A DNA stretch of 64,000 bases from a virus (IMGVR_UViG_3300017598_000768:1-64000), one strand, 5' to 3'. Counted from the first letter of the stretch, positions 1-62,861 are shown. Made by a program: numbers and translations. Notes: generated by a model from the sequence alone, not told the origin.

Positions 1-384
1 GTGCGTAAGTATTTGATATTATTTTTTATACTTGCGTTTTGGCTATACGTTTTTACGTATACCGATGACTATAAACTTTTAGGGGAATTCGTAGGGGCGT
101 GACGTTGGGTACATATAATGCGTTATCGGGTACGTTTGTATTTGACGTTCTCGGGTCTTCATATAGGGTGGTCTGTGGTATGGGCAGCTATTGATTCATT
201 ACTCTTATACATGGGGTGCTTTCTCCAACCCCGCATATAGGTAGGGTGTTAAATGGCTCTTTTACGTCCTTCCTCTGACGCCCCGCATACGGCCCGTATT
301 GTTATGGTGCGTGACGCTTATGGGGAGAGGTATTCGTCATGGCCCGCTTATTCAGCGTTGCAATCGCTTGCAAACGGTGCCCTT

Positions 385-573
385 CTACGGTGCCCTTTTC
401 TCCAGCCTCAACACCAATCGCTTTCGTTTGATCGACTGCACCTTGAATTTCGAGCCTTTTATCACCAATCTTTCACCAACTCTGAAGACTCCAGACAGTC
501 CGGGCCATTTACGTTCTGCCTGCTCATACAATTCTTTCGGTATCTCTTCAAAATGTCCTCTTCCTGTGTCCAT
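385..573 (-). CDS. hypothetical protein
   Basis: 62-aa ORF, GGAGG RBS, continues the minus-strand gene array. Confidence 0.6.
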   Translation of the reverse strand: MDTGRGHFEEIPKELYEQAERKWPGLSGVFRVGERLVIKGSKFKVQSIKRKRLVLRLEKRAP

Positions 574-576
574 TCT

Positions 577-795
577 TCACCTCCAAACATTGTTCCATAT
601 CATTAGCATGAGCACCGCAAGCATCACGTAGTATGCAACCTGTGCAACCTTACCAAATTCTGCTTTGATTTTTATCGGGCACAGAATGCATACGATCAAC
701 AAGAATAGCAGGCCGAGGAATGCTGTAACAACTGACAGCATTACGCAGCCTACACATTCTGCAAAGCCTCTAAACAATCCTGTGGCCGCATCCAT
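577..795 (-). CDS. small membrane protein
   Basis: Two hydrophobic segments; start re-placed at MDAATG after AAGGAGG. Confidence 0.55.
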   Translation of the reverse strand: MDAATGLFRGFAECVGCVMLSVVTAFLGLLFLLIVCILCPIKIKAEFGKVAQVAYYVMLAVLMLMIWNNVWR

Positions 796-60117: not shown

Positions 60118-60119
60118 AA

Positions 60120-62384
60120 TTATTGCACTTTATAAGTATTGATTGCTGCTGTAGCACCCCTTGCACTCGCATATATAGAACCATCCACATTAACCAATGC
60201 ACAGTATTGTGAGCCTCCCAATGCTCCAGACTCGGTGAAGTTGCACTTCTCAATGAGAGTGATAGTTCCGTCGCTTTCAACTTTTAATGATCGTAAATGA
60301 AAATCTGGCTGCACAGACGGCGGACCGCTGTAACCTACAAGAACCCCATTACCAAGCGCGTTTAAAAATCGCTGATGAACTACATACGTATCTAAGTCTT
60401 CAGAATCCTCAAGCGCAAGTGAGGAACCTCCAGTCACACTTACCGCCTTGAGTTTTCCGCCTGAAGTGTGCAATCCATATCCAACCAAACATCCTGAAAA
60501 CCCATCTATGTCAGTAATGATCTGAGGGGTTGCATAATAATATATTATCGAATCCCCGGCTGAAATATCAAGCGAATCTAACTCTGCCGCGAGAGTATTA
60601 CCAGTACTGAGTAATTTCACCCTCACAACAGAAGGAGAGCCTGTTACATAAGTGATAACACTTACACCCTCTGAAAGTCTTGCTATTGATGGCGCTAAGC
60701 CATCAGCACCAAGCTGATATTGATAGCCTGCACCTCCATTTTGTGTGACCAAACCAATGAGTCCACCAGCAGAAATAGAAAATATCTCAATTCGTGCAGA
60801 TCCAGAAAATCCTTCATAAATAGCTGCATATTCAGACCCTTTAACCCTTGTGAAAGTCTCCATTGAATACCCACTAATTGAACGGCTCGGTCTTGAATAC
60901 TGATCTATATAGCTTTTCGTTATCGTTCCGTCATCGGCGATGGTAAAAGTTACAATTTCTGCGTTACTCCATCCAACACCTTTTAAAACTGCAAATATAT
61001 TAGTACTGCCAAGTACTTTTAGAAACCCACCATTCTGTGCAACGCCTGCGTCCAAATTCCATGAATCTATCAAACTTCCGATATTACCATCAGAATCTAT
61101 ATCGAAAGTCTTCAGCCACATGCTTGCTGAATTACGTCTGTACAGGACTGCAAAAACATCACCGTGAACATTCAATAAACTGTGATCCATCGCAAAAATT
61201 GAATCATGGACCCACGAATCGATGGCACCACAAGCTATTTCTCCGCTAAACGTTGTAAAGTTATGATTAATCTTACTGTAAATCACTTTTAAGTCGTTGA
61301 ATGTGTCTTCCCACGACCCAACATTTAGCACTGGAATTTCCGCAACCATCGCATCATCAATTGATCCCATGGAACCTATATCAACATCGTCTCGCAGAAC
61401 GCCCAGATGCAACTCTCCTTCAATCTCAGACAGGGACGCTCCTACATGAGTCATTATCCCCTCAACATAAGACTCTGCCACCACTTGACGGCTGATGAGC
61501 ATACTGATCCCAACATAGTCCGTCGCTTGAAAATAACCCGCTGCTGCTGTAAACGATGCGGCATTCAAAAATGCTGTCGGAACACCAGAAAGGGTCTCCG
61601 CCAAATACCATATTGCAAATGCTGCGTTGTAGTCTATGTCATTAATCTTCGCCAACGAGTCTGACCCTATCGCTGCTATCGAAGGCCATTTACTCATGAC
61701 AAACTTAACAGACGGGGCTCTGGCATAGTCGCCAATCATAACGTCGTCAAAACAGGCGTAAACCATTCCGCGATAAGCAGAACTGTAATTCGCGTTACTA
61801 AGAGCAGCTGTAGCTTTTGCATTCGGCGCTTGATTACTTGTCCCAAAATAGAACGTCATCGAACCAAGATTCTCGCCAGATTCAGAACCAAGCTGAACCG
61901 TCTCTTCACCATCAGCGTCGTCATCGGTCAGCTCCCCATACCACACAACTTTATCGTCGAACAGGATAGAGTGCAACACTCCCGCTGGGTCTGGCCCATA
62001 CGCAAGAGCATGTACCCACGACAGATAATGCTGGTATCCAACTACTACAGTCTGTGTCTCTTCGCCTCCTCCCCCTTTCGCTCCCGGCACTGACTGCTGT
62101 TCCGTTACCTCCACTACTCGATGGCCCCAGTATTGGATAATATTTCCTGCAACTTTCACAGTTCCTAAAAAGTCAGGCAATGGGTCTCCATACCCAGCCG
62201 TTGAAATATCCATCGACTGCGTCTGTGAAGCACCCGGAGTATCGACAGCATCTGGTGTCGTCGCATCAACCATCGCTCCTACTGCCATTCCAGCAGCAAA
62301 GCCTATCACTGCCCCAGCTGGGCCTCCAATAAAAAACCCAGCGACTCCTCCTACTAAACCTGTTACTATACCTTTTCCGCCCAT
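60120..62384 (-). CDS. tail tip protein N-terminal half, copy A, with variable beta-propeller-like domain
   Basis: Highly similar to copy B over about 375 aa, then divergent. Confidence 0.8.
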   Translation of the reverse strand: MGGKGIVTGLVGGVAGFFIGGPAGAVIGFAAGMAVGAMVDATTPDAVDTPGASQTQSMDISTAGYGDPLPDFLGTVKVAGNIIQYWGHRVVEVTEQQSVPGAKGGGGEETQTVVVGYQHYLSWVHALAYGPDPAGVLHSILFDDKVVWYGELTDDDADGEETVQLGSESGENLGSMTFYFGTSNQAPNAKATAALSNANYSSAYRGMVYACFDDVMIGDYARAPSVKFVMSKWPSIAAIGSDSLAKINDIDYNAAFAIWYLAETLSGVPTAFLNAASFTAAAGYFQATDYVGISMLISRQVVAESYVEGIMTHVGASLSEIEGELHLGVLRDDVDIGSMGSIDDAMVAEIPVLNVGSWEDTFNDLKVIYSKINHNFTTFSGEIACGAIDSWVHDSIFAMDHSLLNVHGDVFAVLYRRNSASMWLKTFDIDSDGNIGSLIDSWNLDAGVAQNGGFLKVLGSTNIFAVLKGVGWSNAEIVTFTIADDGTITKSYIDQYSRPSRSISGYSMETFTRVKGSEYAAIYEGFSGSARIEIFSISAGGLIGLVTQNGGAGYQYQLGADGLAPSIARLSEGVSVITYVTGSPSVVRVKLLSTGNTLAAELDSLDISAGDSIIYYYATPQIITDIDGFSGCLVGYGLHTSGGKLKAVSVTGGSSLALEDSEDLDTYVVHQRFLNALGNGVLVGYSGPPSVQPDFHLRSLKVESDGTITLIEKCNFTESGALGGSQYCALVNVDGSIYASARGATAAINTYKVQ

Positions 62385-62861
62385 TTATTTTTTAATCCTA
62401 AACCCAGTCGAGAGTCGGTCTATCTCAAGACGTAGGCTATTTTTTAAAACTCGACTTCTTGCAAGCGCTTGCCACACATACCCATCAAAATAAATAGTCG
62501 CATGTGCTGCCGCCCTCCCATATCTAAAAAGCAGTATGTCTCCATTCATAGGCGGAGTGACCCGTGGATCAAATTCTTCACAGAAAGGGAACTGATTAAT
62601 CCCTTGGCTTAACAGCTCGCTCGTTCTGTGTAAGTGCCAATCAGATGCATAGTCTGGAACCACGAACTTACTCAGGACTCCGACTTCAACCATCACTCTT
62701 CCTACGAAATGGATACAGTCAACTCCCTTCCCCTTCACCGCAGTCTTATGTTTATACGGCGTACCTTCCCATGACTTCAAGATTGTCAGCAGCTGTTGCT
62801 GCTTCTTTTCTGACTCAAAAAAGTTCGTTAAGCCAGTGCTGTCGTTACTGGATTGTCCCAT
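62385..62861 (-). CDS. NlpC/P60 tail-associated peptidase
   Basis: W.GTPY.H....KG.GVDC, PDY..DW, GDILLFRYGR..AH. Confidence 0.88.
   Translation of the reverse strand: MGQSSNDSTGLTNFFESEKKQQQLLTILKSWEGTPYKHKTAVKGKGVDCIHFVGRVMVEVGVLSKFVVPDYASDWHLHRTSELLSQGINQFPFCEEFDPRVTPPMNGDILLFRYGRAAAHATIYFDGYVWQALARSRVLKNSLRLEIDRLSTGFRIKK

Follow-up and report, generated by a model that had tools for sequence, protein, structure and literature searches.

Conserved positions and changing sequence of a dispersed palindrome in a clade of uncultured, virulent phages, with a candidate MerR-type binder

Results

Palindrome copies in the window

The stretch of DNA analysed here (the window) corresponds to the initial 64 kb of the 99,832-bp IMG/VR record IMGVR_UViG_3300017598_000768, the genome of an uncultured virus labelled G000. 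An earlier note on the window had drawn attention to a short palindrome dispersed over most of its length and had proposed that a single protein binds all the copies. The GC skew of G000 is of about -0.25 throughout, which is unusually strong and uniform, and nearly all the long open reading frames (ORFs) are carried by the minus strand, so that almost all genes lie on one strand over about 100 kb. The contexts of the sites were therefore read on the minus strand.

The palindrome, TGCAAKCGMTTGCA as a 14-mer, is present in 13 exact copies in the window, at the positions listed in the earlier note, whereas 0.01 copies were expected from dinucleotide shuffles and none of 100 shuffles reached 13. 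The full record contains 16 exact copies, the three beyond the window being found at 71790, 77108 and 81094, and the reversed pattern, used as a control on the whole G000 record, gave 0 copies. Sites are designated below by the coordinates of the 16-mer; the start of the 14-mer is one higher (e.g. 13434 for the copy that starts at 13433).

Variation in the 14-mer is limited to positions 6 (G/T) and 9 (C/A), the central CG being invariant. Of the four central nucleotides, to which the earlier note had confined the core variation, only the outer two vary. The two asymmetric forms of the 14-mer are mutual reverse complements, corresponding to G or T in one half-site, and both orientations are seen. 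In sequence logos, the conserved element spans approximately 18-20 bp in G000 (tTTGCAAgCGcTTGCAAa), its flanks being otherwise unconserved, and across genomes a 14-20-bp palindrome is conserved and the flanking sequence is not. Lone TTGCAA half-sites were not enriched after subtraction of the full sites. Given these unconserved flanks and unenriched half-sites, the palindrome is a self-contained element.

Gene context of the copies in G000

With a generous ORF set, 10 of the 16 copies overlap non-coding sequence or the edge of a gene, which jointly represent 13.8% of the genome (P = 9e-6). The copy at 358-373, which reads TTGCAATCGCTTGCAA on the plus strand, is non-coding or at a gene edge. 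A perfect palindrome at 8156-8171 is located between a tRNA-Gly gene (8193-8267) and the ribosome-binding site (RBS) of an epimerase gene (7095-8135, minus strand), and the copy at 26017-26032 lies about 35 nt upstream of the start of the primase gene (24966-25982, minus strand). As the earlier note had described, other copies follow a stop codon or abut an RBS. The one at 40171-40186 (14-mer start 40172) begins one base past the stop codon of gene 40187-41104 and heads a 363-nt gap ahead of gene 39074-39838 and the PolA operon. Those at 47639-47654 and 56206-56221 (14-mer starts 47640 and 56207) are each placed between a stop codon and AGGAGG in a stop codon - site - AGGAGG - ATG arrangement on the minus strand, which is also seen for the copy at 71790 outside the window.

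Each of the three best matches to a sigma-70 promoter in the interval 18.8-32.3 kb is preceded by a site, at 28, 16 and 8 nt from its -35 box, in agreement with the 8-28 bp first reported for these copies. The copy at 18999-19014 overlaps the last codons of the RuvC-like gene and precedes by 28 nt the -35 box of a 12/12 match (TTGACA-16-TATAAT, TG-extended; 18970-18943, minus strand). The copy at 31822-31837, about 3 nt past a stop codon, stands 16 nt before the -35 box of an 11/12 match (31805-31777, minus strand), the promoter of gene 31225-31734. The third copy, at 30075-30090, lies in a 535-nt gap (29672-30207), where another 11/12 match (TTGACA-17-TATTAT, TG-extended; 30099-30127) has its -35 box 8 nt downstream of the site. 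Since this third promoter is on the plus strand, the association of sites with promoters is independent of gene direction.

Four copies are clearly intragenic and occur in differing reading frames. They are found at 13433-13448 in a glycosyltransferase gene (12511-14010, minus strand), at 23028-23043 in the SF2 helicase gene (22766-24142, minus strand), where the site covers the codons Ala-Ser-Asp-Cys, at 28494-28509 in gene 28057-28734 (minus strand), a core gene without assigned function, and at 33666-33681 in a MuF-like gene (32431-34041, minus strand); the corresponding 14-mers start at 13434, 23029, 28495 and 33667. In a synonymous-codon shuffle, the check that had been recommended, these intragenic copies were destroyed and essentially never re-formed. 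Both one-mismatch copies announced at 35001 and 62459 are present. The portal-gene copy previously counted with the intragenic ones is the first of these (35001-35016), a degenerate site with one mismatch in the 14-mer; the second (62459-62474) lies in gene 62385-62861. The function of either copy is doubtful.

Short direct repeats were also observed beside individual copies. Just upstream of site 358, in the minus-strand view, GGGCACCGT is repeated twice (374-400). At 30017-30043, two direct repeats of GTGATTGCAAC, each with an ATTGCAA half-site, are separated by 13 nt, at a distance of about 35 nt from site 30075; this is the sole place of the genome with half-sites 13 nt apart, the full sites (spacing 10) aside. 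In the same gap, the plus-strand promoter 30099-30127 is followed by a terminator with a 14-bp stem and a T-run (30174-30209), and the two would yield a small RNA, approximately 80 nt long and antisense to the prevailing direction of the genes.

Related phages carry palindromes of their own

When IMG/VR was searched with the perfect 16-mer, numerous strongly GC-skewed contigs were recovered, each with several copies, and tblastn identified the 16-mer-bearing contigs as syntenic relatives with 30-65% amino-acid identity. To avoid circularity, relatives were then gathered by portal-protein alignment, the motif not being used. Each relative chosen in this way carries its own dispersed palindrome, approximately one per 3-5 kb, with 0 copies of the reversed control. 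G001 (98 kb) has 17 copies of TTTTGCAAACGTTTGCAAAA and three variant ones (two hybrid half-sites and a one-base variant), G002 (61 kb, 54% complete) has 15 copies of TGCAATCGCTTGCA and three of a TCGA form, G003 (77 kb, 74% complete) has 10 copies of GTGCACACGTGTGCAC, and G004 (85 kb, complete, with terminal repeats) has 21 copies of TCCGCAAACGTTTGCGGA. The G000-type palindrome itself (type A) is present in 17 exact copies in G010 (98 kb). In G007 (34 kb), four copies of an odd-spaced palindrome, TTGCAAT-N3-ATTGCAA, were found, with a 15-bp core and a variable 3-nt centre.

Further type-A genomes were detected among metagenome contigs, and the identical type-A motif occurs in many divergent phages of 40-57% GC. 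More distant portal relatives (<=41% identity) had no repeated palindrome in the 15-21 kb sampled. Strong GC skew and one-strand genes are common to the relatives; G006 (123 kb, 99% complete) differs by a GC skew of about 0 and by genes on both strands, and it carries just seven loosely matching TGAAAG-NN-CTTTCA sites and no dense motif. An IMG/VR scan by the AAA ATPase alone recovered no relative. The best portal match among cultured phages is only about 33% identical, and bacterial genomes gave only two distant portal relatives, on metagenome-assembled-genome contigs assigned to Thermoanaerobacter and Atribacterota, neither of which holds the motif. Neither public sequencing runs nor an RNA data set were listed for positions 26000-35900 of the window. 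No match to integrase or resolvase-type recombinases (PF00589, PF00239) was obtained in the five genomes searched, the complete G004 among them. As these five genomes contain neither a tyrosine nor a serine recombinase, the phages have the appearance of virulent ones, which makes a prophage-immunity repressor unlikely.

Positions are kept and sequences change in place

Across five genomes, 62 of the 85 sites are at gene boundaries, often 1-6 nt past a stop codon. At the junction g77264|g76326, before the head-gene block, the site is kept in four of the five genomes. Orthologous junctions with a site in three or four genomes include g71808|g71220, g40187|g39074 (before PolA), g31840|g31225 and RuvC-like|AAA-ATPase. 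G001 and G003 retain the site at the RuvC-like|AAA-ATPase junction and, beside a promoter, at g40187|g39074; the site of g31840|g31225 is also found in G001. Conservation in related phages, which the earlier note had put forward as a check, holds for the positions of several sites, and the sequence of the motif differs by relative.

The same behaviour was observed inside a coding sequence. In the SF2 helicase gene, the Ala-x-x-Cys codons ahead of a conserved ATYG stretch hold a site in G000 (GCA AGC GAT TGC), in G001 (GCA AAC GGT TGC) and in G003 (GCA CAC GTG TGC), each version being that genome's own motif. The equivalent codons of G006 (TTA GAG AAC TGT), a genome without the MerR-like gene described below, make no palindrome. 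The helicase site has therefore stayed at its position, its sequence being converted with each change of the genome-wide motif. Such rewriting implies that the nucleic acid itself is under selection at each copy to fit a single reader that changes, and it counts against copy-and-paste mobile repeats.

Recombination linkers or small mobile palindromes, spread by copy and paste and marking module boundaries, would be compatible with the copies at gene boundaries that flank variable regions and with the identical type-A sequence common to many divergent phages. The dispersed repeats of Cluster O mycobacteriophages likewise flank an inserted gene (PMC4351075). The conversion of the helicase-codon site to each genome's motif, the unconserved flanks devoid of target duplications and the many junctions that are stable across genomes make this explanation highly improbable.

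The symmetry of the reader is suggested by the composition of the sites. G001 contains hybrid half-sites (GCAAAC|GTGTGC), and the asymmetric intergenic copies of the type-A genomes are oriented 18:10 when pooled, 7:10 without G002, and 9:0 in G002 alone. The hybrid half-sites and the occurrence of both orientations fit a symmetric dimer reading two half-sites. These results point to a site-by-site co-evolution with one symmetric binder acting on double-stranded DNA, and a single sequence-specific protein for all the copies, as first suggested, is the best reading of the comparative data.

The RNA-hairpin alternative raised in the earlier note fared less well. The palindrome could act as an RNA hairpin (3' or 5' stabiliser, processing signal or antitermination element) or in single-stranded DNA, since many copies lie 1-6 nt past a stop codon and just ahead of an RBS. 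Some G001 and G002 copies are just upstream of intrinsic terminators, some G002 and G003 copies form the tip of a longer hairpin, and in G002 the asymmetric intergenic copies are nine of nine in one orientation. The predicted hairpins are nevertheless weak (-3.5 to -9 kcal/mol), with z-scores that are non-significant in five of six cases. The stems are identical within a genome and display no compensatory changes, the orientation bias disappears when G002 is set aside, one copy serves a plus-strand promoter, and the A/T-rich flanks show no 3' U-run after the hairpin. A search of Rfam recovered tRNA only and no family match for the palindrome. We consider a role at the RNA or single-stranded level as very unlikely. 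An intrinsic terminator or a REP-like hairpin was rejected on the weak stems, the missing U-tract and the lack of covariation.

Candidate binding proteins

The recognisable core genes of the site-bearing clade encode DnaB, a primase, an SSB-like and a RecA-like protein, two resolvases, a Cas4-like nuclease, an AAA ATPase, PolA, portal, MuF and TerL. To these is added a 144-residue protein (22345-22779, minus strand) encoded just after the SF2 helicase gene; no other core gene has a product recognisable as a sequence-specific DNA binder. The MerR-like label that it had received was confirmed at the level of the fold. The AlphaFold2 model (pLDDT 87) displays an N-terminal basic two-helix hairpin (residues 10-52) and a MerR-type winged helix-turn-helix (HTH; residues ~60-126), and its best Foldseek matches are MtaN, NmlR, RacA-DNA, GlnR and CarH, the top ones being all MerR-fold proteins. 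A single-sequence Pfam scan gave no match. The protein matches a PHROG family annotated as transcriptional regulator (9e-12), a profile of eight homologues retrieved BrlR, MerR, CadR and BmrR from the PDB (4e-6 to 1e-4), and in the Atlas it falls within a viral MerR_1 cluster (score 0.92). The model contains neither the long C-terminal coiled-coil dimerisation helix nor an effector domain, and has the N-terminal helical hairpin instead. Unlike the operators of the MerR family, which occupy a promoter spacer of 19-20 bp, the sites are never inside a spacer; they are upstream of -35 boxes or between genes.

The gene and the motif tend to occur together. G006, which has no dense motif, has no MerR-like gene at the syntenic spot, where the helicase gene is followed by the g22019 homologue. 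Almost all the loci with a recognition helix of the TIRxYH type have dispersed TGCA-type palindromes, the exceptions being L140, with a different palindrome, and L096, and none of the eight loci with a DFLxxWE-type helix has palindromes of this TGCA type. No MerR-like homologue was found in cultured phages. In 8 of 11 genomes, a site within the helicase gene precedes the MerR-like start codon by 250-286 nt (250 nt in G000, for the copy at 23028). Because the helicase and MerR-like genes overlap, this intragenic position is the nearest available upstream site. The co-occurrence is suggestive and does not constitute a proof. On the basis of fold and gene distribution, the protein 22345-22779 is tentatively proposed as the most likely binder; the identification becomes probable if the binder is phage-encoded.

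The ParB-like protein that had been listed among the possible binders (5868-6761, minus strand) was considered for sites of the parS or KorB type. It possesses a ParB_N domain, the sites are parS-like in length and symmetry, and G001 and G004 have a site at the 3' end of the ParB gene. KorB, a ParB-family CTPase with an HTH, reads one dispersed palindrome on the IncP plasmid RK2 through 12 OB operators, which are found, as here, at promoters, distant from promoters and inside genes. The ParB_N protein of G000 is not a core protein; it is non-canonical, with a DGEHR nuclease-type motif and no recognisable HTH, and its gene is directly upstream of a putative small terminase (TerS) and of TerL (phrog_2, 1e-11). 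Using tblastn and a six-frame Pfam search, the gene was not found in the sequenced parts of G003 (10 sites) and G002 (18 sites), and in G003 the TerS gene directly occupies the syntenic spot. General Pfam and PHROG scans recognised no ParA family among the scanned proteins, no dedicated ParA search being made. ParB was thus rejected as a general binder on grounds that are strong and, since both records are incomplete, not final, and the hypothesis is left with a minimal probability.

The other phage proteins proposed at the outset were also discarded. The Fis-HTH protein (54580-54975) is unique to G000, with no homologue in any relative, and the ribbon-helix-helix candidate (12366-12533) has a Pfam score below threshold, no PHROG match and a location in a variable sugar cluster without orthologues. 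A sigma-54 promoter reading was set aside on our own reading of the sites, the spacing from the TGGCA-like element to TTGCA being one base too short.

A host LacI-family regulator of the PurR, CcpA or MalR type had been suggested as well, and it is the main rival that stays alive. Operators of this kind would wire phage transcription to the nutrient state of the host, or would titrate the repressor on multiplying genomes. The sites resemble LacI-family operators (PurR box, cre, MalR box) in shape, in the invariant central CG and in identical 12-mers. The even-spaced variants (G000-G004 and G010) are all palindromes of 14-20 bp whose central CG is invariant, and the PurR and MalR box, as published, reads GCAAACGTTTGC; the match in motif shape also counts against the favoured phage-encoded reader. 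In addition, GCAAGCGCTTGC is found within a cre site of CcpA, our own comparison shows a fit of the G000 and G001 motifs to the cre consensus WTGNAANCGNWNNCW, and G006, devoid of the MerR-like gene, still has its seven cre-like TGAAAG-NN-CTTTCA sites. The phages themselves encode no LacI protein: a six-frame search of five phage genomes for the LacI HTH (PF00356) gave no match above the cut-off, so that any LacI-type binder should be host-encoded. The odd spacing and variable centre of the G007 sites are incompatible with the insertion of a hinge helix at a central CpG step, the same type-A motif is used in phages of 40-57% GC, which likely have different hosts, and different sequences stand at the same positions in G003 and G004. 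For titration, moreover, neither conserved positions nor a site on fixed helicase codons would be needed. A host LacI-type regulator is therefore regarded as improbable.

Proposed role of the sites

The interpretation that we favour, to which we give about an even chance, is that the palindromes are double-stranded-DNA sites for one phage-encoded, two-fold symmetric protein, whose specificity would have drifted together with the sites in this clade of 85-100-kb phages. We infer that a MerR-type protein sits at the edges of transcription units and acts on the host RNA polymerase. Where a copy is placed 8-45 nt ahead of the -35 box of a consensus sigma-70 promoter, it would modulate that promoter, and copies that separate a stop codon from the following RBS, or lie in genes, would be roadblocks limiting read-through. 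The conserved helicase-gene copy, approximately 250-290 nt upstream of the MerR-like start codon, could give autoregulation. Such a punctuation of transcription is ranked first and an architectural role second, the long site-free stretches over the tail genes of G000 and G003 placing the former above the latter.

Several observations weigh against this interpretation. As to the binder, the recognition-helix residues of the TIRxYH subfamily do not follow the motif types A, B and C, the helix of G000 (PTVAEYQ) deviates from that of the other type-A genomes, and L140 combines a type-A-like helix with a different palindrome. MerR-like homologues at 27-31% identity are encoded by phages without a dispersed motif in the 5-20 kb sampled. 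The co-occurrence of gene and motif is itself confounded by phylogeny, G006 being also without several other core genes of unassigned function. As to the effect on transcription, the early ~18.7 kb of G000, in transcription order, holds perfect-consensus promoters and zero sites. The distance from site to -35 box ranges from 0 to 45 nt, hence there is no single activator geometry. By our own count, in about 20 of 24 large gaps the site adjoins the upstream stop codon and not the promoter, and in a few relatives sites are found upstream of, or inside, intrinsic terminators; both features also speak for a role in RNA.

A phage protein of the same kind could have an architectural job, the sites being anchor or loading points by which the replicating genome is folded, bridged or tethered, as in RacA-ram, MatP-matS or KorB-OB. 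The spacing of the sites is evener than random in G002 (coefficient of variation 0.35) and G004 (0.48; both P < 2e-4), and marginally so in G001 (P = 0.02) and G000. In G002 (L072-L075, oriented 26158-33516), a gap-free 7.4-kb gene of 2452 codons, homologous to a 1085-residue tail-region protein of G000, has three motif copies about 3 kb apart. The candidate combines a MerR-fold domain with a separate helical hairpin, and RacA, one of its best structural matches, binds dispersed 14-bp palindromes (PMC4914108). On the other side, site-free gaps of 15.6 kb in G000 and 23.5 kb in G003 extend over the tail genes, the early ~18.7 kb of G000 is devoid of sites, and the strong bias to gene edges and strong promoters is not required by such a role, which is judged unlikely. 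Equally unlikely would be a replication-coupled timer, in which the multiplying sites titrate a fixed pool of the roadblock protein so that late genes are released, or a kinetochore-like or genome-folding system, in which a MerR-fold protein with a helical oligomerisation module of its own would collect about 16-21 roughly evenly spaced palindromes and so bridge or tether the replicating genome; in both cases, protein and sites would co-evolve in lock-step.

The clade offers a natural specificity series, with homologous positions and a concerted sequence change at least five times. If the preferred assignment to a phage-encoded reader is correct, the series could reveal in what way about twenty dispersed sites change in step with their protein while function is kept, and how a large one-strand virulent phage punctuates or organises a 100-kb transcription field. 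As one small MerR-fold candidate accompanies the series, a direct test (four proteins by four sites) is cheap.

Comparison with known systems

Scattered identical palindromes recur in phage genomes, their binder and purpose being mostly unassigned. The C1 operators of P1 are a further instance of dispersed identical sites. The present case belongs with these other dispersed phage sites, its distinctive feature being a clear series of in-place co-evolution.

Cluster O mycobacteriophages contain 17-bp dyad-symmetric repeats, TGTTCGGNNNCCGAACA, in more than 30 copies per genome (PMC4351075). A single inverted repeat is scattered there as well, mostly intergenic or near gene ends and in some cases in ORFs, with no binder or function assigned (PMC4351075). 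The two systems differ in sequence, in host and in spacing (7-3-7 in Cluster O), and neither lineage-specific co-varying versions nor a candidate binder is described in the passages on the repeats (PMC4351075).

The stoperators of Cluster A mycobacteriophages, with which the palindromes had been compared in the earlier note, are bound by an immunity repressor of the L5 gp71 type, and the bound protein halts elongating RNA polymerase (PMC9283540, PMC6550527). They form dozens of identical genome-wide sites, often at junctions, that co-evolve with the phage repressor (PMC9283540, PMC6550527). Many identical junction sites and lineage-specific versions of the motif are found here too, with a putative protein partner. 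The stoperators are asymmetric, monomer-bound, oriented with transcription and devoted to prophage immunity, whereas the present sites are palindromic and unoriented, in a virulent phage without integrase, and the candidate has a MerR fold. The analogy was thus retained for dispersed junction sites and abandoned for prophage immunity.

RacA of Bacillus subtilis binds the ram sites, TGACGCCGGCGTCA, which are dispersed 14-bp CG-centred palindromes, by means of a MerR-fold winged helix associated with a separate helical oligomerisation part (PMC4914108), an organisation close to that proposed for the candidate and its sites. RacA is a cellular protein with a C-terminal coiled coil, which anchors the chromosome to DivIVA and is not a transcription regulator (PMC4914108). 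No sequence relationship beyond the fold links it to the candidate.

Other genes and repeats

The first gene behind the site and promoter at 31822 (31225-31734, minus strand) encodes a protein of 169 residues present in all five genomes. Its model (pLDDT 86) is beta-rich with C-terminal helices and matched no solved structure (Foldseek E > 0.04; best VIA Z 3.4). Gene 39074-39838, downstream of site 40171, had weak and unnamed Atlas matches only. The neighbouring gene 35705-39064 (minus strand) encodes a 1119-residue family-A DNA polymerase with an N-terminal domain of the uracil-DNA-glycosylase superfamily; its polymerase domain is interrupted by an intein that contains an HNH endonuclease, and the relatives align across the gap.

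Tightly clustered repeats unlike the dispersed motif were also noticed in relatives: GTCTCCAAATGGAGAC four times in L095 (1315-1417), CCGGACCCCACAGGTCCGG three to four times in L096 (2840-2940), repeats of GGCCAGATGCATGTGGCC in L104 (3544-3625) and, at one end of G006 (oriented coordinates 1-270), a 25-bp unit repeated about 10 times. These clusters may be origins, enhancer-type sites or packaging repeats.

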